Origin: Candidatus Omnitrophota bacterium
GTDB taxonomy: Bacteria > Omnitrophota > Gorgyraeia > Aquiviventales > Aquiviventaceae
Direction: 5' to 3'
DNA: 64,000 nucleotides
Assembly: GCA_016180575.1 (NCBI GenBank)
Contig: JACPAY010000006.1
Location: 10,165-74,164, forward strand
The notes under the pieces: model-generated
The model's input: only the letters and a program-made list of their open reading frames with translations
What the model was told of the DNA's origin: nothing
Database searches by the model: none
Part shown: in pieces, positions 6,540 through 64,000 of the stretch
Position numbering within the stretch: position 1 is the stretch's first letter
How the letters are laid out: the number at the start of each line of letters is the position of its first letter
Made by a program: the position numbers and the translations under genes

Positions 6540-6678
6540 TGGTGCGGGAGTCGGGTCTGGTATTATACAATAAGTTGGTTTCGGGTCTCCCTTCCGTACC
6601 ACGCTCCCATCAGACCCTCCGTTGTCGCTGCTGCCCAAAGTAGCCGGTATTTTTGGGTTGATGAAAGGGGGGGTTGGA

Positions 6679-7374
6679 ATGCCACGGCGCCATCGAGACT
6701 GGCTTCCAGGAGGCATCTACCATATCACTGTGCGAGGGAATAATCGTCAAGCTATTTTCCTCGACGACATCGACTACCAGCAATACCTCCTGGAACTTCG
6801 TCGCAGTCGGGACGAATACCCCTACCGACTTTTGGCGTTCGCGTTGATGCCGAATCACGTGCACCTGGTCATGGAGGCCTTGCCGGATGCCTGCCTCTCT
6901 GACGTCATGCATCAGGTGGGTAAGAGCTACACGCGCTACTTCAACGGACAGCACGATCGCGTCGGCCATTTGTATCAGGGCCGCTTCTACAGCAACCTGG
7001 TCAATCGAGAATCTTATCTGCTCGAGGTCACCCGTTACGTCCACCTCAATCCATTTCGAGCAAGCCTTGTGCGCCGACCTGCCGAGTACCTCTGGAGCAG
7101 CTATCGCACCTACCTTGGGCTGGAGCGTGATCTGCTGGACCTCGTGAGCCCTCAACGAATTTTGGAGTTGTTCGGCACTACGTTTGCCGAACAGATTGAG
7201 CGATACCGAAGCTTTGTCGAGCAGCTTGTAACCGAGGAGGAGAAGGCGCGGGCGTGGCTACGGAAGTTGTACCGCGAGAAGCTGATCCCCCCACAACGCT
7301 GGCTCTTTCCTCGACCATCACCTCAAAAAGTACCGGGTACTTTTTCCGCTTTGGGAAGTACCCGGTACTTTTAG
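6679..7374 (+). CDS. REP-associated tyrosine transposase (RAYT; IS200-like Y1/HUH transposase)
   Basis: HUH motif MPNHVHLVM and catalytic Tyr context TRYVHLNP. ATG at 6679. The C-terminal 17 codons run through the downstream REP doublet. The only clear plus-strand gene in the window. Confidence 0.8.
   Translation: MPRRHRDWLPGGIYHITVRGNNRQAIFLDDIDYQQYLLELRRSRDEYPYRLLAFALMPNHVHLVMEALPDACLSDVMHQVGKSYTRYFNGQHDRVGHLYQGRFYSNLVNRESYLLEVTRYVHLNPFRASLVRRPAEYLWSSYRTYLGLERDLLDLVSPQRILELFGTTFAEQIERYRSFVEQLVTEEEKARAWLRKLYREKLIPPQRWLFPRPSPQKVPGTFSALGSTRYF
7324..7374. repeat. REP doublet (inverted pair)
   Basis: CAAAAAGTACCGGGTACTTTTTC (7324-7346) and GGAAGTACCCGGTACTTTTAG (7354-7374). The loop is CGG in one and CCG in the other, i.e. 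opposite orientation. Overlaps the RAYT and ftsA stop codons. Confidence 0.85.
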
Positions 7375-34359: not shown

Positions 34360-34656
34360 CTAGAAGGCTGCGGGAGGGGCGCGGGAGGAAGGGCGAGCGG
34401 TGACGAGGAGAAGAGGAGCGGCGTCAGGAACGAGCGGATTGGCAGCCACCCAACCGTGCGGGAGCGGCGCGATCGCAACTGACGGCCGATCCGCTGAAAA
34501 GCCGTCCTGGATCTTGCACGCCCGGCATTGATGGGCGGGGTGGGAAACGGACGAGGGGTCGTGCTGGTGGGGAACGGCGACCGCCAGCGCAAACGCGAGG
34601 GCGCATGCGCCGAGCATGAGGGTGCGGATGCGTTGAGCGATCAGTCGCTGCTTCAT
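34360..34656 (-). CDS. small secreted His/Cys-containing protein (hypothetical)
   Basis: 98 aa with a signal peptide, then HQHDPSSVSHPAHQCRAC. Upstream of the metal-uptake genes. Coding status uncertain. Confidence 0.35.
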   Translation of the reverse strand: MKQRLIAQRIRTLMLGACALAFALAVAVPHQHDPSSVSHPAHQCRACKIQDGFSADRPSVAIAPLPHGWVAANPLVPDAAPLLLVTARPSSRAPPAAF

Positions 34657-34679
34657 CTGTAACGAAATATTATAGCGGC

Positions 34680-35357
34680 TTATTGCGCCCGGGTGTAGCG
34701 GATCTCCATTGACTTAAATTCGCGGCCTTCCGGGGTGCGGGAGTAGCTCTCGTAGGTGGTGTGGTCCGAGTCCGACACCGTCCATGCCGTCCGGTACCAC
34801 CGGTGCGTCTCACCGGTGACGGGGCAGCTGAAACTCCCCTCGTCGGCGAGCGTCTTGGTCGAGGCGTCGAACTGGCCGGTGCCCGTCATCATTCCGGTCA
34901 TCATGTTGTCGAACCAGACCGTCTGATACTCCTTGCGGATATTGTCGTAGCCGATGAAGCCAGTGCCCTCAAATGGCGGGTGGCCTTCCTCCATCGGTTG
35001 GCCATTGACCTCTTGCTTCAGGAAGCGGCCGCCGAAGATCAGCGTGTTGACGGCGGTCCCCGTCATGGACTCGGGCGCCTCATCGGGGGACATCCAGAAC
35101 TGCGCCGCGTAGCCCCAGGTGCCGGCGAGCGGCTCAAGCGCCTTGTGGCCTTCGCTTGGGCTGCCGAACTTCTGCATCGCCTCCATCATCGCCTGCTTCG
35201 CATCCGGCACCGCCGGCTTGGCGGTCGTCCCCTGCTCCGCCTGCGCCAGTCCGGTGCCCATCGCAAGCATCCACGCGCCTGCAACCACTGACCATCCCGC
35301 TGTTCGCATCTGCCGTCTCCTTGTGCTGTGCTGCGCCATCATAGACGTTACAACCAA
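34680..35357 (-). CDS. DUF1579-family secreted protein
   Basis: 225-aa ORF with a signal peptide. Matches my recollection of DUF1579 (FGGRFLKQEVNG, GFIGYDNIRKEYQTVWFDNM). The start is probably the ATG near 35342. Confidence 0.65.
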   Translation of the reverse strand: MVVTSMMAQHSTRRRQMRTAGWSVVAGAWMLAMGTGLAQAEQGTTAKPAVPDAKQAMMEAMQKFGSPSEGHKALEPLAGTWGYAAQFWMSPDEAPESMTGTAVNTLIFGGRFLKQEVNGQPMEEGHPPFEGTGFIGYDNIRKEYQTVWFDNMMTGMMTGTGQFDASTKTLADEGSFSCPVTGETHRWYRTAWTVSDSDHTTYESYSRTPEGREFKSMEIRYTRAQ

Positions 35358-35803
35358 TACTGACGATACTCGGGGCTCAAGAGCTGACGAACGAGCTTTT
35401 CCTCTAAGAACTCAGGGAGTTCTTCAATACTGCGCAAATCATACTCATCGTTTTCAACATCATATAACCACAATCGGTAAGCATCCCTTGGTTCGCCTTC
35501 AACCGCGATGACTGCCCAAACACCACCGAAGCTATTGGGGGAGACACCGACCACAAGAAATTTCTTGGTGTACAGACCAATGAACTTTTCTCCGTCAAGA
35601 ACACCCAAGTGGCATTCAGGACATGTGTCATGAATACGAATCGTGCGATCAAAGTTTCTCCGAATCTCGGCAGGAATGGGTGTCGTGTAGATCTCTTGCA
35701 ACTCCGTGACCCCGTCACCAAAAGTTGAGGGACAACACGCAAGCAGCGCAACCAGCAATAATAGCTTGCGGGGTTGCAAGCGATACATGGCTTTTAATCG
35801 CAT
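35348..35803 (-). CDS. hypothetical lipoprotein (candidate immunity partner)
   Basis: 151 aa. Signal peptide with a lipobox-like LLAC(C). Lower GC. Overlaps the upstream transglycosylase gene by 10 nt. Confidence 0.5.
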   Translation of the reverse strand: MRLKAMYRLQPRKLLLLVALLACCPSTFGDGVTELQEIYTTPIPAEIRRNFDRTIRIHDTCPECHLGVLDGEKFIGLYTKKFLVVGVSPNSFGGVWAVIAVEGEPRDAYRLWLYDVENDEYDLRSIEELPEFLEEKLVRQLLSPEYRQYWL

Positions 35804-36492
35804 ATAAATACGGGCCTGTCGTCAATCGTCACCCAGTGCCCTTCCGTGCAGCGATATTCTCCTTTCCTTGGCGGTTCCTTGTGTTTGATGGTCTTGTCGG
35901 CCGGTGACTTTGCTGCGAATTCAGCTTGGTAGGAGAGAACGCGTTCAACGTATTGTCTGATCTCGTCGGCCTTAGATAGGCTGGTGTCCTCCGATTCAAG
36001 AAACTTTTCCACGTTCATCCATAAGATAGGATCTGTTCCGGCCTGCTTGGCGCGTTGTTGAGCATCAGCGATGCGCCTTGGGCCGCCGTTGTAAGCTGCG
36101 AGGGCGAACTTTTGCCGCTCTACGGCATTCTTTACACCAATAATCGTTTTTGCGTCTTCACTAAACCTGTTGTCAAGATCTTTGAGGTATCTTGCCGCCG
36201 CGGAAGAGGCGTACTCAATGTCAAACCGTTGATCGTTATTCTTCGAAGTGTTTAAACCGTACTCTCTCGCGGTATCCGGCTTGAAGTGAAAGTGGCCGGC
36301 GGGAACAGTGGAACCACGCTCTCTCAACATGGTACCGAAGCTGCTCTCACGCCCATACACAGCCTCGAGCGTATTTACCGTCAGGTCATCGTTCGCGTCA
36401 AAATACCTCGAGGCGCTTTCCAGCGCTTTGCGCACCCGAGGGGTTTCCCGCTCAAGCCATTGATCCACGTTGGACGGCTGTTTCTCTGCCAT
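35794..36492 (-). CDS. lytic transglycosylase (SLT-domain) without signal peptide
   Basis: 232 aa. Catalytic E-S context (YGRESSFG) and AYNGGP motif. No N-terminal signal. Lower GC than neighbours. Confidence 0.7.
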   Translation of the reverse strand: MAEKQPSNVDQWLERETPRVRKALESASRYFDANDDLTVNTLEAVYGRESSFGTMLRERGSTVPAGHFHFKPDTAREYGLNTSKNNDQRFDIEYASSAAARYLKDLDNRFSEDAKTIIGVKNAVERQKFALAAYNGGPRRIADAQQRAKQAGTDPILWMNVEKFLESEDTSLSKADEIRQYVERVLSYQAEFAAKSPADKTIKHKEPPRKGEYRCTEGHWVTIDDRPVFICD

Positions 36493-36523
36493 CCCTGGTT
36501 TCCCCTACCGCATCACGAAAGAA

Positions 36524-36600
36524 TGGTCGGGGCGCTGGGATTTGAACCCAGGACCTCCTGGTCCCGAACCAGGCGCTCTACCAAACTGAGCCACGCCCCG
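36524..36600 (-). tRNA. tRNA-Pro (anticodon CGG), CCA encoded
   Basis: Hand-folded cloverleaf. Acceptor CGGGGCG/CGCCCCG, D arm GCTC/GAGC, anticodon stem CCTGG/CCAGG with loop TTCGGGA, T arm CTGGG-TTCAAAT-CCCAG, then ACCA. Confidence 0.9.
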
Positions 36601-36611
36601 TTATCGCATAG

Positions 36612-36800
36612 CTATTGACGTATCAGGCGGTCGGCGGACACCCTCACGACCTTGCCGGCGCGCCAGAGGGCAACGGGTTGGCCGAGCCGTTTATGCTCTT
36701 CGAGGACCCGCCGGAAAGCCCGTCTCATGGCCTTTTCAGCCTTCACGGATAATGAGGCTCCGTTGCCCTTTTTGTTTTTGATAGCTATGACTACCCTCAC
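36612..36800 (-). CDS. small hypothetical protein, third gene of the mazEF unit
   Basis: GTG at 36800, 5 nt after the mazF stop. 62 aa ending ...AMRRAFRRVLEEHKRLGQPVALWRAGKVVRVSADRLIRQ. The ORF-track start (36860) overlaps mazF and was rejected. Confidence 0.4.
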   Translation of the reverse strand: MRVVIAIKNKKGNGASLSVKAEKAMRRAFRRVLEEHKRLGQPVALWRAGKVVRVSADRLIRQ

Positions 36801-36804
36801 TAAT

Positions 36805-37164
36805 TCAGAGGATCGCTGATTCAACGATGAGGGGTGCCAGTTTCCGCAGCACCTCAGCAAGTGTCACCGTTGGCGCCGCGCAACAAAAACGAGCTCTCCT
36901 CGCCTTCCAATCCAGACTCTTGACTTGGTCCGCTAACACGACTCCCGATACCTCTAACCCTTTAGGAATGGGCACCTCAAACGGATAGCCTTTGACTTGG
37001 GTCGTAATGGGACAAACGAGCGCAAGTCCAACCTTCTTATTGTATAGTTCTGGAGACAAGATCAGGGCGGGTCGATGGCCAGCCTGCTCATGCCCTGCTT
37101 GAGGGGTAAATATCAGCCACACAATATCGCCTCGCTTGGGGTAATACGGGCCAGACATTACCAC
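36805..37164 (-). CDS. mazF: MazF/PemK-family endoribonuclease toxin
   Basis: 119 aa (PKRGDIVWLIFTPQAGHEQAGHRPALILSP, VCPITT). Confidence 0.85.
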   Translation of the reverse strand: MVMSGPYYPKRGDIVWLIFTPQAGHEQAGHRPALILSPELYNKKVGLALVCPITTQVKGYPFEVPIPKGLEVSGVVLADQVKSLDWKARRARFCCAAPTVTLAEVLRKLAPLIVESAIL

Positions 37165-37415
37165 GCTTCCTGTCCCACCCGCCCTCCCCAGTCAAGTTCC
37201 GTGTGACGATTGCCCTTTGTCACCCCTCGGAGTAATTGCGTCAAGGTATAGTGCTGGCGCCGTGTTGGCTTCACTACGATCTTACCTGCGATCAGCGCAA
37301 TATCCACCACCGACCCCTGGCGGAGATGGATATCCCTTGCCACCGACCGGGGAATCCGCAAGGCCAGGCTATTGCCCCACTTTTGGACCATCGTGTTCAT
37401 GTCATTCCTCCTCAC
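37158..37415 (-). CDS. mazE: MazE/AbrB-type antitoxin
   Basis: SpoVT/AbrB fold signature (VQKWGNSLALRIPRSVA). Overlaps the mazF start by 7 nt. GTG at 37415, or an ATG 5 codons in. Confidence 0.8.
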   Translation of the reverse strand: MRRNDMNTMVQKWGNSLALRIPRSVARDIHLRQGSVVDIALIAGKIVVKPTRRQHYTLTQLLRGVTKGNRHTELDWGGRVGQEAW

Positions 37416-37424
37416 GTAGTGTAT

Positions 37425-37913
37425 CTACAATGAGTATACATATCTTGCCAACCCATTGCAAACTTTAGCGGCGGGGCTATCCGGTGCTGTCTCAATTTGG
37501 CGGGTCCTGCCGCGCCGCCACCCCGTCGGCTGTCCTCGGCCTTCGCCTGCGGGCAGGCGACGGGGTCCCCGGCTCTGCGTCAGGAAGATGAAACAGAGCA
37601 GCACGGCGGGCTCGCCGTGATTCTGAATGGGCCAGAACCCTTTGGGCTGATGGAACTGAAAGTAGGCCACCGCCATTTCCCCTGACAGCACGAAGGCGAT
37701 GGGCCGCGTGAAGAGCCCCAGCATCACCGCGGCACCGCCGTAGAACTCGAGCGCCCCCCCGATCCACGTCTGCGACAGGAACGAGGGGTGGCCGCCGAAC
37801 TCGGACGGGATGCCGCCGAACCAATCGAACAGCTTCATGCCTCCGGCCTGGAGGAACAAGAGGCCCGCGACGATGCGGAGCAGGAAGTGCGTGACCTGTC
37901 TGGCCCGGTCCAT
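37425..37913 (-). CDS. DoxX-family membrane protein with repeat-derived C-terminal tail
   Basis: The first ~113 aa are DoxX-like (LRIVAGLLFLQAGGMKLF...). The last ~50 aa are encoded by the GC-rich repeat and the sequence beyond it. Confidence 0.75.
   Translation of the reverse strand: MDRARQVTHFLLRIVAGLLFLQAGGMKLFDWFGGIPSEFGGHPSFLSQTWIGGALEFYGGAAVMLGLFTRPIAFVLSGEMAVAYFQFHQPKGFWPIQNHGEPAVLLCFIFLTQSRGPRRLPAGEGRGQPTGWRRGRTRQIETAPDSPAAKVCNGLARYVYSL
37483..37582. repeat. GC-rich long-hairpin repeat, copy 1 (left TIR only)
   Basis: GGTGCTGTCTCAATTTGGCGGGTCCTGCCGCGCCGCCACCCCGTCGGCTGTCCTC-ggccttcgcc-TGCGGGCAGGCGACGGGGTCCCCGGCTCTGCGTCA. Aligns with copies at 44911, 53120 and 63652. Confidence 0.9.
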
Positions 37914-42554: not shown

Positions 42555-42583
42555 AGTATAGCCTCTCCGGGCGGGGCGGTCAA
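42555..42583 (-). promoter_or_regulatory. sigma70-type promoter of the rib operon (TTGACC-17-TATACT)
   Basis: -35 at 42583..42578 and -10 at 42560..42555. The ATG is only 13 nt downstream of the -10, implying a very short or absent leader. Confidence 0.55.
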
Positions 42584-42713
42584 TCCGCCGGGCCGGGGGG
42601 TACTGTCCTAATTTGCCCCCACCTTTCTTTGAATCTTATCAAGCATTTTAGCCATGTTCCATAACATACCCATCTGACCAATCGTAAGAATAAGTATTAC
42701 GCCTACGATCTTT

Positions 42714-43541
42714 TCAATTGCCATTTTCCCTCCAGGTTAACGCCCCCTTCACTAATTTCTCCAAACTCCAGATATGGTCAGTTATACCAGCCGCCATTGC
42801 CGGTGTCATCTTCAACGTACGGTGTACCCTGCACAGGTTGTAGTGACCGAAATGCAAGGCTAAAGCAGCTACCAAGTTCTCGGATTTCTTGCTGAACGCA
42901 TTGGTTTTACGGGCAATCCGTCTGACGCTCATCCGCATCGTGAGGTTGTTGCGCTCCACATACGAGGTTGAAATCTTGTCGAGCTTCGGATAACCAGCCA
43001 CCACGCTAGGCCGCGCCCCGATACACTCATCCCCTGAGTAAATTTTCACTAACTGCCCGAAGTGTACCTCTGTCCCGAATGCGACCTCAGCCGCGTCCAC
43101 ATAGGCAGGGAAGCCGTCGGTCGAAAGCTGAAACTCCCCCACGATGCGCTTGCGGAGATCGCTCATCAGCCGCAAGGCGGTGTAGCCGTTGCGGTGGCCG
43201 GTCGTGTGGCTGATGACTAGCTTGCTCTCAGCATCGAGGGCGACAAAGACCCACACCTCTCCGCTGTAGCCGTTCATCACCAAGCCGTGATACTCAGGGT
43301 TGTTTTTCTTTCCTATGAACGTGCAAAGCTCGTCTGCTTGGACATAGTTGACCTTCAAACCCTTGATCTGTTCGTCCAACATCTTCTGTGCTGCCTGACC
43401 TGCCCGAACGTGCCAGCGCATGATCGTATCACGGTGAACGCCTGTAATGCGCTCTAGGGAGCGAATGGACTGGCCTTCAACGAGACCATTCAGCAAGATT
43501 AAGATTTTCTCTTTACTCAGCACATTCATATGAGAACACAT
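42714..43541 (-). CDS. IS1-superfamily DDE transposase
   Basis: 275 aa. N-terminal HTH (SIRSLERITGVHRDTIMRW) and DDE-region landmarks (ADELCTF, STDGFPAY, SYVERNNLTMRM...KTNAFSK). The likely start is the ATG at 43529. Confidence 0.85.
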   Translation of the reverse strand: MCSHMNVLSKEKILILLNGLVEGQSIRSLERITGVHRDTIMRWHVRAGQAAQKMLDEQIKGLKVNYVQADELCTFIGKKNNPEYHGLVMNGYSGEVWVFVALDAESKLVISHTTGHRNGYTALRLMSDLRKRIVGEFQLSTDGFPAYVDAAEVAFGTEVHFGQLVKIYSGDECIGARPSVVAGYPKLDKISTSYVERNNLTMRMSVRRIARKTNAFSKKSENLVAALALHFGHYNLCRVHRTLKMTPAMAAGITDHIWSLEKLVKGALTWRENGN

Positions 43542-43558
43542 ATGTTCATTTAATAGGC

Positions 43559-43584
43559 AAAAAAATATCCCTCAGCGCTGAGGG
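43559..43584 (-). terminator. intrinsic terminator after the HTH gene
   Basis: 16-nt perfect palindrome CCCTCAGCGCTGAGGG (43569-43584, includes the stop codon), followed on the coding strand by AUAUUUUUUU. Confidence 0.6.
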
Positions 43585-43760
43585 AGAATGCCCTTTGATT
43601 GAAGTATGACTTGGTACGCCCTAGAAACCTTGGTCTTGCCTGTCAGCCACCGATTAACCGTCTGGACAGGTGCACCAATCTCGGCGGCAAACTCGTATTG
43701 CTTCTTGTCGTGACGAGCGAGGTAGACGTTGATCTGGCGAATAAGTTCCTTGTCGCCCAT
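43572..43760 (-). CDS. Cro/XRE-type helix-turn-helix protein
   Basis: 62 aa (KKQYEFAAEIGAPVQTVNRWLTGKTKVS). Confidence 0.8.
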   Translation of the reverse strand: MGDKELIRQINVYLARHDKKQYEFAAEIGAPVQTVNRWLTGKTKVSRAYQVILQSKGILPQR

Positions 43761-43806
43761 TGCGATACGATACTATCATATGTGTTCTCATGTGTCGATA
43801 TCAATT

Positions 43807-44136
43807 TTATTCAAATGCATCGACAATTTGAACTGGCAATGTAATTGGTTTGACGTTCTCTGGCGCTGGTGGCGGCGCAATAGTATCTACCTTTGGTTTT
43901 GTTGGTCGAGTGATCGGCTCAAGAGAAAGTCTATTTCTGATGATATAGTGTATATTTTTTTCTTTTTCGGGTGTGAAAAGTATTCCTCGAAATCTACCTT
44001 GCAAATCCCAAACAAGCTCTCCTTCAATCCAACCAAGATGATCGCCGTCTCTAGAAAACAAAAGTCCCTCTTTGAAGAACCCAAGGTAATTTCCGTTCGT
44101 CTTATAAACATGCTTTATGGTTATAGTGACAGTCAT
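43807..44136 (-). CDS. small beta-rich hypothetical protein
   Basis: 109 aa with Gly-hydrophobic beta-hairpin-like repeats (NGNYLGFFKEGLLFSRDGDHLGWIEGELVWDLQGRFRGILF) and a Pro-rich tail. ATGA overlap with the protease gene stop. Confidence 0.5.
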   Translation of the reverse strand: MTVTITIKHVYKTNGNYLGFFKEGLLFSRDGDHLGWIEGELVWDLQGRFRGILFTPEKEKNIHYIIRNRLSLEPITRPTKPKVDTIAPPPAPENVKPITLPVQIVDAFE

Positions 44137-44810
44137 GGGGTAATTATTTTATGATCAGGAATATAGTTAGCAGGTACAGCATAACCCATACCTAGATTAA
44201 CGTTACTCACTAGAGCCTTATATATTTCAACTATATCGATACCATGTAAGGACAATGCCCCTACGCTCATATTTTCAATTGCTTCCAACAACCGGTTATG
44301 TTGCCTTCTCTTCAGGTTAACAACTCCCAAAACTTTCCCTTCTGTGTCCATTAAAGGACAACCGCTATTGCCAGAGTTAACTGTTCCATCGATAGCATAA
44401 GTAGTTATGCCAGCCGCATCTTTAATTATTGCAGAAATGATTCCTTGATGGGTTGTAAGGTGCTCGGAACTAAATGGATAACCTGAAAAAATTACACGCA
44501 GCCCCTCGGTAACTGGATTGATAAGACTAATTGGTAGAGGATTTCGTGTGGAGTCATCAAACTTTAGAAGCGCTAGATCGTGTTCCTCGTCCTTTATAAT
44601 AACTTTGCTTGTAATCGCGGCATTTGTGTCAGGAAATTTTATAGCAACAGCGCTGGCATCTTTTACGACGTGATTACAGGTTACCAAAATATTCTTGGTT
44701 CCAAAAACGAACCCGCTTCCAGTGCTGAAGAGTTTTTGGGCAGGGTCGAGTACGGCAAGAACAAGAGCAATGCTCGGCTTGACCTGCTTGATAACGGGGG
44801 AGTGATCCAT
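44133..44810 (-). CDS. cytoplasmic trypsin-fold (S1/Trypsin_2-like) serine protease
   Basis: Start at internal ATG 44810 (MDHSPVIKQVK...). Triad contexts TCNHVV / EHDLALLKF / GNSGCPL. No signal peptide. The upstream ORF-track residues cross the TIR and GC repeat and were rejected. Confidence 0.8.
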   Translation of the reverse strand: MDHSPVIKQVKPSIALVLAVLDPAQKLFSTGSGFVFGTKNILVTCNHVVKDASAVAIKFPDTNAAITSKVIIKDEEHDLALLKFDDSTRNPLPISLINPVTEGLRVIFSGYPFSSEHLTTHQGIISAIIKDAAGITTYAIDGTVNSGNSGCPLMDTEGKVLGVVNLKRRQHNRLLEAIENMSVGALSLHGIDIVEIYKALVSNVNLGMGYAVPANYIPDHKIITP

Positions 44811-44910
44811 CGGGATGAGGTGATAATATAGCACTAGGAAGCATGAAAGGTAAGCGAATTTTGAGCTTCGGTTGGATTGCCAAATTAGGACACTACCGGC
44901 CGGGGGGTGC

Positions 44911-45028
44911 TGTCTCAATTTGGCGGGTCCTGCCGCGCCGCCACCCCGTCGGCTGTCCTCCCCCGCCATGGCGGGGTGCGGGCAGGCGACGGGGTCCCCG
45001 GCTCTGCGTCACCCGCCAAATTGAGACA
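44911..45028. repeat. GC-rich long-hairpin repeat, copy 2 (complete, perfect 18-bp TIRs)
   Basis: TGTCTCAATTTGGCGGGT ... ACCCGCCAAATTGAGACA enclose the conserved arms and a CCCCGCC-AT-GGCGGGG apex. Ends 13 nt from the smc stop. Confidence 0.9.
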
Positions 45029-45041
45029 CGATCGGCCGGGG

Positions 45042-48000
45042 TCAGGCCGGCACGGGCGCGGCGGGTTGGGCCCCGGGCGTGAGCTTGGCGGAGAGGATCT
45101 TGGAGATGCCGGCCTCCTCCATGGTGACGCCATAGAGCGAGTCGGCCTTGGTGATGGTCTTCTTGTTGTGGGTGACGAGGATGAACTGGGAGAGCGCCAG
45201 GAACTCCTCAAGCACCCGGGTGAAGCGGTCCACGTTCGCCTCATCGAGCGGCGCATCGATCTCATCCAGGATGCAGAAGGGCGAGGGGCGGACCTTGAAG
45301 AGCGCAAAGAGGAGCGCCACCGCCGTCAGCGCCCGCTCGCCGCCGGAGAGGAGGCTGATGCTCTGGAGCCGCTTGCCTGGCGGGCGCGCCACGATGTCGA
45401 TGCCGGACTCAAGGACCTCCTCCTCATCCAGGAGGATGAGGTCGGCCTCGCCGCCGTTGAAGAGCCGCGCGTAGTAGTGCTTGAACTCCTCGGTGATGCG
45501 CGCGAAGGTCTCGCGGAACTGCGCGCGCGCCGTGCGGTTGATCTGGGTGATGGAGGCCTTGAGGTCATCGCGCGCCTGGACGAGGTCCTGCTGCTGCGTC
45601 TGGAGGAACTCGAAGCGCCGCTTCAGCTCGTCGTACTCCTCGACCGAGCCCAGGCTCACCGGGCCGATGCCCTCGAGCTTGGCCCGGAGCTTCTGGATCT
45701 GCTCGGCGTCGAATGCGCGCTGCTCCTCGGTGAGCGGCGAGGGGTTGGCCTGCTGCTCGGTCTGCACCGCCGCCTCGTCGATCTGGTAGAGCTCCCGCAG
45801 GCGCTCCACCAGGTGCGAGCGGCGGAACGCCCGCTCGGAGAGCTGCTGAGCCTGCTCCTGGATCTCGCGCATCAGGGCGGAGAGCTGCTGCTCCACCGCC
45901 AGGAAGTGCGGCAGGAGCTGGTCGCGCTTGGCTTCCTCCTCGCGCAGCGCCTGGCCGACGGTCGCGGCCTCCGCTTCGACGCGCGCGCGCTCCTCCTGGA
46001 GCTGGCGGCCGCCCGCCTCATGGGCCTCCACCTGCTGCGCAAGCTCCGCGGAGCGCGCCTGCGCATCAACCCGCTGCTTGGCCTTCGCCTCAAGCTGCTG
46101 GGCGAGCTGCGCGCGGTCTGATTCCACCTCATGGACGCGGGCCTCGAGCGCGCCGAGCCGCTCGGTCAGCGACTGCAGGCTCGCCTCGACCTGCGCCCGG
46201 GCGATCAGCAGCTCCTGCTTGCGCTGCTCGGACGCCTCGCGCGAGGCCTGTGCCTCCGCGAGCGAGCGCTCAAGCGTCTGCTGGCGGCGCTCCGCCTCCT
46301 CGACCGCCTGCCGCGCCGCCGCAAGCGACGCCTGCAACTCCGCCTGCCGCGCGGCGAGCTCCTGCATCTCGAGCTCGCCCGCCGCGCGCTCCTCATCGAG
46401 CCGCTGCATCTCCCGCGCGAGCTGCCCAAGCTGCGCATCGAGCTTGTGCAGGGCAGGCAGAGCCTGCGCAAAGCGGCCCCTGGCCGACTCCTGCTCCGTC
46501 AGGCACGTCTGCCAGGCCTGCTCCGCCTCCGCCGCCTCCGATTCGAGCCGCAGGAACTCCAGCTCCCGCGCCTGAAGCGCCGACTGTCCCTGCTCCCAGC
46601 GCTGCTTCCGTCCGAGCCGCCCGTGCGCCGGCGCGCGGGTCCCGCCGAAGCGCCACGACCGGCGGTCCCACCGGTCGCCGCGAACGCTCACGAGCCGTCC
46701 CTGCGGCGCGGCGCGGCCGGCGAGCAGCCGCTGGATGTCATCGATGACCCAGGAATCGTTCAGGAGCCAGTCCACGAGCGGCTGGTACTCCGGCTCGGCG
46801 CGCACGAACTCCTTCACGGCGCCGGTGACCCCCTCGCTGACCTCCACCCGCTCCATCGAGAGCGCCACGGGGCAGTCGGAGAGGACGAGGAATCGGCATC
46901 CCGCCAGCTGCTGCGTGCTCATCGCCTGGCGGCAGCGCGAGAGCGCCGCGCGGTCGCGCACCACGAGCGCGTCGGCCAGCGGCCCCAGCGCGGCCTCCAC
47001 CACCTCTTCATAGCCGGGCTGCGCCTGGACGAGGTCCACGAGCGGGCCGATGAGCCCGTCGATGGATTGCGTCATCAGCGACTTCACCGTGTCCGGAAAC
47101 CCTTCATAGCGCCGCCAGAGGTCCTCCCAGAGCGCGACCTGGGCGCGCTCGCTCGCCAGCTGGTCGCGCACCTGGTGGAGCCGCCCGGCCAGCTCATGGC
47201 GCCTGGCCCCGGATGCGTCGAGCGACCGCTGGGCGATGGCGAGGCTGCTTTGGAGCTCATCGTGCTGCTGCTGGAGCGTCTCGCGCTCCTGCTGGATGGC
47301 CTGGTGGCGGCGCCGCGTCTCTTCCGACTGGGCCGCCCGCTGCGCGCGGCCGGCATCGAGGCGCGCGAGCTGCGCCTCCAACCCCTGCAGCTGCGACGTC
47401 AGCTCCGCGAGCTCGTTCCGCTGGCGGGACGCCTCGGCGGCCGCCTCGAAGAGCTCGGCCTTGGCGCCGGTGAGGGCGCGCAGCGCCGCCTCGACCGCCG
47501 CGGCCAGCGTCGAGAGCTCCTCGCCGCCCTGGCTGAGCTGCCCCTGGACAGCCGCAAGCTGCGCGCGGATCTCCGATTCGGCCCCGCCGAGGCGCGAGCG
47601 CTGCTCCTCAAGCTGCCCGAGCCGCGCGCGCAGCTGGAGCTCCTCCTGCTCCAATCCCTGTGTCTGCGCCCCCAGCTCCCCGATCCAGCGCGCCTTGAGG
47701 GCGCGCTGGCTCTCGTGCTGCTCAATCTGGCTTGCGCACTCGACCGCCTTGGTGCGCAGCGCCTGGAGCTGCTGCTGGACCGCGGAGACGGCGCTGTTGG
47801 CCGCTTCAAGCGAACTCATGTGCGCGGTCTTCTGGGCCTCCCGCTCGTCGCGCTCGCGCTGCAGCGCCTGCACGCGCGCCTCGAGCTCCTTGTGGCGGCT
47901 CTCGCCGCCGCACAGCTCATCCACCGCCAGGCGCAGCTCGAGCGACTTGAGCTGCTCCCATTGCGTCTTGTACTGGCGCGCCTTGTTCGCGGCCCGCTCC

Positions 48001-53102: not shown

Positions 53103-53119
53103 GAAAAAAGTACCGCGGG

Positions 53120-53212
53120 TGACGCGGAGCCGGGGACCCCGCCGCCTGCCCGCAGTCCCGCCGATGGCGGGACGAGGACAGCCGGTGGGGTGGCGGCGCG
53201 GCAGGACCCGCG
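53120..53212. repeat. GC-rich long-hairpin repeat, copy 3 (inverted orientation)
   Basis: TGACGCGGAGCCGGGGACCCCGCCGCCTGCCCGCA-gtcccgccgatggcgggac-GAGGACAGCCGGTGGGGTGGCGGCGCGGCAGGACCCGC. Ends 4 nt from the pilO-like stop. Confidence 0.9.
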
Positions 53213-63624: not shown

Positions 63625-64000
63625 CTATCGAAAACGTTGTCTGGCCGCGGGTGACGCGGAGCCGGGGACCCCGCCGCCTGCCCGCAGGCCGACGAGGCCG
63701 AGGACAGCCGGCGGGGTGGCGGCGCGGCAGGACCCGCGGCGGGCGGCCGGCTCCGGCAGATGGGCGGGCTTCAGCGTCCCCTCCTCATAGAGGCCGATGA
63801 TGGCGTCCACCACGATGGGGTCGAACTGGACGCCCCGGTTGCGCCGCAGCTCCCCGATCGCCCCCTCGATCGGCATCCCCTTGCGGTAGGGGCGGTCGGT
63901 GACCATCGCGTCAAAGGCGTCCACCACCGTGGCGATGCGCGCCCCGATGGGGATCTGCTCGCCCTTGAGCCCTTCCGGGTAGCCGGAGCCGTCGTACGCC
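63625..64000 (-). CDS. HD-GYP domain protein, 3' part (gene enters from beyond the window)
   Basis: Hand translation from 64000: AYDGSGYPEGLKGEQIPIGARIATVVDAFDAMVTDRPYRKGMP...FDPIVVDA. The last ~37 codons are repeat-derived. Confidence 0.75.
   Translation of the reverse strand, partial: AYDGSGYPEGLKGEQIPIGARIATVVDAFDAMVTDRPYRKGMPIEGAIGELRRNRGVQFDPIVVDAIIGLYEEGTLKPAHLPEPAARRGSCRAATPPAVLGLVGLRAGGGVPGSASPAARQRFR
63652..63737. repeat. GC-rich long-hairpin repeat, copy 4 (inverted orientation)
   Basis: TGACGCGGAGCCGGGGACCCCGCCGCCTGCCCGCA-ggccgacgaggcc-GAGGACAGCCGGCGGGGTGGCGGCGCGGCAGGACCCGC. Lies inside the 3' end of the HD-GYP ORF. Confidence 0.9.

Follow-up and report, generated by a model that had tools for sequence, protein, structure and literature searches.

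What lies between smc and ribBA in this groundwater bacterium, and did it arrive there in one piece? The window analyzed here, that is, the whole stretch of 64,000 nt from Candidatus Omnitrophota bacterium (assembly GCA_016180575.1, contig JACPAY010000006.1), contains a 2,299-bp unit (42599-44897) between the smc stop codon and the ribBA promoter of a high-GC host. The source record (MBI2104548.1, locus tag HYT90_03055, on an 82-kb contig) is labeled a Candidatus Omnitrophica metagenome-assembled genome (MAG) from groundwater. An earlier note on this DNA had described the unit as a compact unit transposon with three passenger genes. We find that it is very probably one transposable element, a "transporter insertion sequence" (tIS) of the IS1 family, single open reading frame (ORF) type. 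Its foreign origin, by horizontal acquisition into the high-GC host, is supported.

Boundaries, core genes, and family of the element

The unit is bounded by terminal inverted repeats (TIRs) of 17 bp, GGTACTGTCCTAATTTG and CAAATTAGGACACTACC, which are complementary at 16 of 17 positions. The transposase-distal repeat lies at 42599-42615 (plus strand) and the cargo-proximal repeat at 44881-44897 (minus strand, on which it reads GGTAGTGTCCTAATTTG), so that the unit ends in GGTACTG... and GGTAGTG.... Directly outside both repeats stands the same 8-bp sequence, GGCCGGGG (42591-42598 and 44898-44905), as expected of a target-site duplication (TSD). Both the repeats and the exact duplication had been proposed in the earlier note and were confirmed. 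At the host base composition, an 8/8 match of the flanks has a chance probability of approximately 4e-5. The degenerate end motif was found at 5 sites in the window vs. 0.2 expected from shuffles.

The low GC content reported earlier also held when GC and codon positions were checked: the unit has 46% GC vs. 69% in the rest of the window, and GC content at third codon positions (GC3) falls into three tiers. GC3 was 0.93-0.96 in the host genes ribBA and smc, 0.62-0.68 in the core of the insertion sequence (IS; transposase and helix-turn-helix genes), and 0.33-0.36 in the cargo (protease and beta-flower genes). We attribute the three tiers to a low-GC donor that supplied the cargo once the core had diverged. 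Counted from the inverted repeat (IR) at 44897, the gene order is protease, beta-flower, helix-turn-helix (HTH), transposase, and a 38-aa ORF, all on the minus strand.

The transposase is encoded by a single ORF (42714-43529, minus strand; 271 aa from MNVL) with an N-terminal HTH. It passed the Pfam profile DDE_Tnp_IS1 (PF03400; 40.9 bits, cut-off 24.1), and its best NCBIfam match was the IS1 model NF033558 (74.6 bits, E = 9.5e-21, cut-off 100). In an alignment with 11 relatives the protein was full-length and the D70/D142/E196 triad was invariant (positions counted in the 275-aa ORF). The first 70 residues lack cysteine, and neither a zinc finger nor an insA/insB frameshift is present. As judged from these comparisons, the transposase belongs to a divergent IS1 clade and is intact, in line with the IS1-superfamily assignment of the earlier note.

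DNA homology of the unit to its closest relatives, the loci L034, L035, and L036 (91%, 80%, and 69% protein identity), was confined to the HTH and transposase genes. The HTH gene (43572-43760, minus strand) encodes a Cro/C1-type HTH_3 protein of 62 aa, which is approximately 85% identical in L035 and is also present in L034 and L036. A promoter-like site of the HTH-transposase module (43770-43804, minus strand) marks the boundary between cargo and core and embeds an operator-like arm (43777-43794), an inverted copy of which (43527-43544, 17/18 positions) overlaps the transposase start. The promoter-like region (-35, operator-like GAGAACACATATG, and -10) is kept in L035 and L036. A terminator-like hairpin, TCCCTCAGCGCTGAGGGA followed by a T-run (43568-43585, minus strand), overlaps the HTH stop and is kept in L034 and L035. 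Because the HTH gene and its promoter are kept with the transposase in the 69-91% relatives, in which the cargo (HNH_2 with MT-A70; PIN and NYN) differs from that of the unit, the HTH gene by this comparison belongs to the IS core and not to the cargo. Two of the three passengers named in the earlier note, the protease and the beta-rich (beta-flower) protein, thus remain. Through the two operator-like repeats, the HTH protein probably represses both its own promoter and the transposase; the hairpin with its T-run, located after the HTH gene, probably curbs read-through into the transposase gene.

A hydrophobic ORF of 38 aa, MAIEKIVGVILILTIGQMGMLWNMAKMLDKIQRKVGAN (42608-42724, minus strand), lies between the transposase stop and the IR and ends inside the latter. 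It was called in a Logan contig, gave no family match, and is of uncertain status. The ORF is not kept in the 91% relative L034, the spacer of which differs, is longer, and contains another hydrophobic ORF.

The IS1 family has ends of the type GGnnnTG and TSDs of 8-9 bp, and both the unit and 15 relatives fit these values. The unit is like the family in its DDE transposase, which passes the Pfam IS1 profile, in ends that start GGT..TG, and in its 8-bp TSD. It is unlike the classical IS1 of Escherichia coli (768 bp) in being three times as large, in having neither the InsA/InsB frameshift nor the N-terminal zinc finger, and in having a separate upstream gene for an HTH regulator, as well as passenger genes. 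ISAba3 is an example of a single-ORF IS1 member.

Tn3-type unit transposons have a large Tn3-family transposase, a resolvase with a res site, IRs of approximately 38 bp, and a 5-bp TSD. The unit contains no such transposase or resolvase, its IRs are 17 bp, and its TSD is 8 bp; the Tn3 type was rejected. What stands of the "compact unit transposon" is an IS1-type element with TIRs, TSD, and cargo, and the category that applies is tIS. The tIS concept (Siguier, Gagnevin and Chandler 2009, cited in PMC3129680, PMC7986276, and PMC9330008) was defined for the IS1595 family and others. The unit is like a tIS in that passengers unrelated to transposition lie inside the IRs, that the TSD surrounds the whole 2,299 bp, and that the layout is found clade-wide. 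It has the 8-bp TSD of IS1595-type tIS, but its transposase scored higher on the IS1 model than on the IS1595 model (74.6 vs. 38.8 bits). The latter score, for NF033547, is below the cut-off of 75, and membership of the IS1595 family was rejected. The earlier statement that an 8-bp TSD fits IS1/IS1595-type elements remains correct in that this length is compatible with either family; the transposase profile favors IS1. The transposon itself is of an established kind, a cargo-carrying IS. By analogy with the behavior of the family, its transposase would bind the 17-bp IRs and carry all 2.3 kb at once to GGCCGGGG, into cuts staggered by 8 bp.

Cargo-carrying relatives and the protease/beta-flower pair

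Homologues of the transposase are abundant, and relatives were sought in genome, plasmid, and IMG/VR loci. The 15 bounded relatives had the same end motif (clade form GGTAGTGTCyyArTTTG). All had perfect 8-bp TSDs, each of different sequence, mostly AT-rich and with no consensus across the clade. Their lengths were 2,052-4,224 bp vs. the approximately 1.2 kb needed for the core. The cargo included HNH_2 with MT-A70, PIN and NYN, MazF, a methylase-restriction endonuclease fusion, P63C, and an XRE regulator; membrane and secreted proteins and many unknowns were also found. Since the relatives all carry varied extra genes inside their IRs, multi-gene cargo is typical of the clade. The earlier note had called such cargo atypical for simple IS elements; for this clade the view is reversed.

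One of the closest relatives, L036, is a complete 3,027-bp element with the TSD GACCCCTT in the Omnitrophica-labeled MAG GCA_016192545.1. More distant members of the clade reside on plasmids of cultured isolates, namely Hoeflea sp. IMCC20628 (NZ_CP011481; 4,224 bp) and Acidiphilium multivorum (NZ_CP041717; 2,634 bp). These two share with the unit the end motif (clade consensus GGTAGTGTCTCAGTTTG, from which the IRs of the window differ at 3-4 of 17 positions), a perfect 8-bp TSD, an IS1-family transposase, and several extra genes inside the IRs. They differ from it in that the transposases are only 40-43% identical, the cargo consists of an XRE regulator and hypothetical proteins, and no small HTH gene lies directly upstream of the transposase. 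The PGAP label for the 40-43% relatives is "IS1 family transposase" and nothing more.

Several variants were seen in passing. Locus L032 (3709-5982) has clade IRs, a perfect TSD (AATGTGCC), a 599-aa methylase-restriction endonuclease fusion, and a transposase remnant, and resembles a mobile-insertion-cassette derivative. Two unrelated relatives have 24-bp tandem duplications of the IS end, that is, the 17-bp IR plus 7 bp (L011, 2338-2385; L015, 2411-2458). The 321-kb jumbo phage of Brevundimonas vB_BpoS-Gurke (H16, ON529850.1) contains an unannotated relative of the transposase at 174803-175666 (31% identity).

The first cargo gene (44133-44810, minus strand) encodes a stand-alone trypsin-like serine protease of 225 aa (Trypsin_2, E = 1.5e-22), the H/D/S triad of which is invariant among homologues. 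The second (43807-44136, minus strand), which overlaps the first by 4 bp, encodes a 4-fold beta-flower protein of 109 aa (PF21784, 38.6 bits, cut-off 25). The pair recurs in 5 independent contexts with proteases that are 55-68% identical, and in all 5 the beta-flower gene lies directly 3′ of the protease gene, either overlapping it or at most 17 bp apart. Hosts of the pair elsewhere have 31-50% GC, and many of the named protease homologues are annotated as Patescibacteria. The neighbors in those genomes were HicA; SMODS with SLATT; a type III restriction-modification (R-M) system with a reverse transcriptase (RVT); and PLDc_2 with a BsoBI R-M system. Near these other loci we found no IS1-type ends beyond chance-level matches with 4 mismatches inside genes, so nothing indicates that this IS is the usual vehicle of the pair.

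The beta-flower fold was described in 2023, without a known function. The beta-flower partners have in common a linker rich in Pro and, at the C-terminus, a conserved LPVxxxDAF motif. An AlphaFold model built on a shallow alignment of 3 sequences placed the strands at residues 8-67 (predicted local distance difference test score, pLDDT, 83-88) and showed the tail as a coil (54-66). The idea that the C-terminus forms the central plug of the barrel found no support in this model, in which the tail is a low-confidence coil, although a 3-sequence alignment makes this a weak test. PADLOC v2 gave domain-level matches of the protease to RT-Protease (RT-Protease_XI), LmuA, HamA, and Avs1b, and no significant match of the beta-flower protein.

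The fused proteases of the Hachiman, Lamassu, Avs, and DRT systems activate partner pro-nucleases (PMC12799240). The cargo pair resembles the protease pairs of Hachiman, AVAST, Lamassu, and the DRT protease-metallo-beta-lactamase (MBL) nuclease (PMC12799240) in its related protease domain, its tight pairing, and its defense-island neighborhood. It differs from them in that the protease stands alone, in that a downstream gene encodes its partner, a beta-flower (Tubby-clan) protein rather than an MBL nuclease, and in that a sensor component is absent; the pair is known here from its genes. Most likely, the two cargo genes form a self-contained conflict module, for anti-phage defense or addiction, that hitch-hikes on the IS, and a role of the pair in defense or addiction is plausible.

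The adjacent MITE and the choice of target

The earlier note had placed a GC-rich hairpin repeat next to the unit. The hairpin is present and strong (z = -6.6), and it is part of a GC-rich miniature inverted-repeat transposable element (MITE) of 128 bp (44906-45033), with ends of the IS1 clade (GGTGCTGTCTCAATTTG ... CAAATTGAGACACGATC) around a core like the repetitive extragenic palindromic (REP) hairpins of the host. A third GGCCGGGG (45034-45041), the right-hand duplication of the MITE, follows directly before the smc stop codon at 45042. With direct repeats (DR) written out, the layout is DR-IS-DR-MITE-DR. The segment is short and noncoding, and it has clade-type IRs, a GGCCGGGG TSD, and further copies, as MITEs do. 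The GGCCGGGG copy at 44898-44905 is common to the IS and the MITE and forms the 8-bp spacer of an IR-IR junction. Joint movement of IS and MITE as a composite transposon was rejected, since it would leave the agreement of the middle GGCCGGGG with the outer pair to chance. Most simply, one of the two elements was already in place, and the other entered at its flanking 8 bp.

The same triple-repeat tandem was found in locus L031, as CGATTTTT-MITE-CGATTTCT-IS-CGATTTCT, and there too the MITE adjoins the transposase-upstream end. In IS30 and IS911, a new element lands beside a resident end, and the spacer between the IRs equals the duplication length (2 or 3 bp). The IR-IR junction of the window follows this pattern with a spacer of 8 bp. 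The IS family is another one, however, the targeted end is of a heterologous MITE subtype, and the parallel is drawn from sequence comparison. The chemistry presumably differs as well, because IS30 and IS911 use circular copy-out intermediates. On the strength of the two cases, window and L031, insertion directed to the end of a resident MITE seems the somewhat better account. As its most likely cause, the transposase would recognize the MITE end and insert exactly one duplication length away, as in targeting of the IS30/IS911 type.

Other copies of the MITE and of its core were found. A truncated copy at 37483-37585 has the left IR and the core but no right IR; its first 55 nt are identical to the copy at 44906, and its left flank differs. 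The 3′ end of a DoxX-like ORF (37425-37913, minus strand) reads through this copy, which supplies the C-terminus and the stop. A low-GC island (approximately 34600-37470) with DUF1579, an unknown 151-aa protein, an SLT transglycosylase, tRNA-Pro(CGG) at 36524-36600, and MazF/MazE at 36805-37415 stops a few base pairs before it, so that foreign DNA borders on MITE ends at two places within 8 kb. Copies of the hairpin core at approximately 53115-53211 and 63647-63737, as well as in L036 (6712-6813), have neither IS-type ends nor GGCCGGGG. The core is a REP-like host repeat that is also present in the Omnitrophica-labeled MAG GCA_016192545.1, which carries the related tIS with other cargo. A metagenome scan with the MITE end yielded a 60-bp mini-MITE on a Joint Genome Institute (JGI) contig (L043) with the same ends and a perfect but different TSD, TGCTCATG.

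On the other side of the unit, the ribBA promoter-like site (TTGACC-17-TATACT, 42555-42583, minus strand) is intact, with its -35 element 7 bp from the TSD and 15 bp from the IS end. The insertion left host genes and promoters intact. All IS genes point towards ribBA, and read-out into ribBA is thus possible. An Rfam search returned only a tRNA-Pro in the window and no match at the insertion locus. Elsewhere in the window, a low-GC patch (6.5-7.5 kb) contains a 250-aa IS200-like Y1 transposase (6622-7374, plus strand; PF01797, E = 1.5e-13) that is RAYT-like. The ORFs on its two sides encode an identical peptide, KVPGTFSAL.STRYF, a hint that REP-type repeats flank the gene.

Competing explanations and significance

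Each part of this history has a competitor. The flanking GGCCGGGG could be a piece of a longer, pre-existing host repeat of the GC-rich hairpin family, and the "TIRs" parts of that repeat which an unrelated insertion has separated. Direct repetition around the unit does reach 25 nt at 88% identity (42591-42615 vs. 44898-44922) or, at 85%, 27 nt; the locus has three copies of GGCCGGGG and the window 22, vs. 14 expected; and the hairpin core is a multi-copy host repeat. However, the 25-nt repeat arises because the MITE, with its homologous ends, abuts the unit, and the extra similarity is the IR itself, common to the whole IS clade in unrelated genomes. The hairpin copies at 53115, at 63647, and in L036 are without IS-type ends and without GGCCGGGG, the partial MITE at 37483 has another left flank, and the mini-MITE of L043 has the TSD TGCTCATG. 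Since the mini-MITE duplication differs and the REP-like copies without IS ends lack GGCCGGGG, the 8 bp are a genuine target duplication, and the host-repeat explanation is largely refuted and very improbable. The earlier note had named a flank within a longer repeat as the finding that would overturn it; a 25-nt repeat superficially matches that description, and the homologous IR of the MITE resolves the matter in its favor. An assembly error, with a low-GC fragment of another organism joined through a shared repeat, might be suspected from the MAG source, from the extreme composition step, and from a related IS in another MAG of the same sample series. The junctions were nevertheless reproduced at 100% identity in Logan assemblies of two other runs (SRR12113431 and SRR12113385), of which one contig spans both junctions and the other the right junction alone. 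The IS end and the MITE end share no more than approximately 11 nt of uninterrupted identity, which would not suffice to bridge a de Bruijn graph. Given the identical junctions and the short match, a chimera is extremely improbable; an IR with an 8-bp TSD is also the geometry of transposition and not of a chimera.

A further possibility is that only the core of approximately 1.2 kb (HTH and transposase) is mobile, the protease/beta-flower segment being a separate low-GC insertion and the right IR coming from another element (a solo end or a MITE cluster), so that the 2.3 kb never moved as a whole. It would account for the two-tier composition inside the unit (GC3 0.62-0.68 vs. 0.33-0.36) and for the protease pair being found elsewhere without IS ends, and solo and tandem ends do occur in the family (L011, L015, and L031). 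Yet no internal IR-like sequence lies at the core/cargo boundary, and the exact 8-bp duplication brackets all 2,299 bp. By sequence, the right IR goes with the left IR and with those of the closest relatives (TCCTAATTTG subtype) rather than with the MITE subtype, and in the relatives, too, IR, cargo, and core follow one another in this order, with TSDs enclosing the entire element. We consider movement of the core alone improbable, though less so than the two explanations above. As to the 8 bp common to IS and MITE, they could reflect a preference for GGCCGGGG-like targets, or coincidence, instead of end recognition. GGCCGGGG is common in the genome, and only two tandem cases were seen among approximately 17 bounded elements. 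In contrast, the TSDs of the clade have no consensus and are mostly AT-rich, the same 8-bp register would be hit by chance about once in a genome length, and in L031 this register recurs with a TSD of unrelated sequence. Target preference is accordingly unlikely, although the least unlikely of these four.

Several observations weigh against our reading of the locus as a whole. The NF033558 score of the transposase does not reach the NCBI equivalog threshold for IS1. One copy of the exact unit was seen: exact-sequence look-ups with the transposase, RibBA, and the NCBI protease and one metagenome scan with the MITE end found no second copy and no natural empty site. An exact look-up with the beta-flower gene gave just two short Logan contigs, which are identical to the window and represent the same locus, not independent copies. 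The empty junction described in the earlier note, ...CCGCCGGGCCGGGG|GGTGCTGTCTCAATTTGG..., stands as a reconstruction; with neither second copy nor empty site, mobility of the whole unit is argued from the single exact TSD and the behavior of the family. That the HTH protein, the repeats, and the hairpin act in regulation is read from their conservation. The cargo function is guilt by association, and no system described in PADLOC v2 matches the cargo proteins as a set. End-directed insertion has two cases, the window and L031, either the IS or the MITE may have arrived first, and we know of no documented IR-targeted insertion for IS1-type elements.

If all threads are joined, the clade would be a dedicated shuttle for small conflict modules (R-M, MazF, PIN, NYN, and RHH), the pair would be an undescribed abortive-infection or defense system, and nesting beside MITEs would be IR-targeted. 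The stand-alone protease would then act on the conserved and apparently flexible C-terminal tail (...LPVxxxDAF) of the Tubby-clan beta-flower protein and so switch on a membrane-directed effector. We regard this joint reading as speculative and, taken whole, rather doubtful.

The unit is a clean, well-bounded case of horizontal transfer into a high-GC groundwater MAG. It belongs to a widespread IS1-related clade that routinely carries passengers of 1-3 kb, of which public records say only "IS1 family transposase." Many of these passengers are of the restriction-modification, toxin, or nuclease type, and annotation of the true boundaries would change the view of how small "defense" genes spread. 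More novel are the uncharacterized protease/beta-flower module and the possibility that an IS1-type clade inserts in an IR-targeted manner. The module also gives a genomic handle on the beta-flower fold, at least one subfamily of which is strictly paired with a cytoplasmic trypsin-like protease in defense islands.

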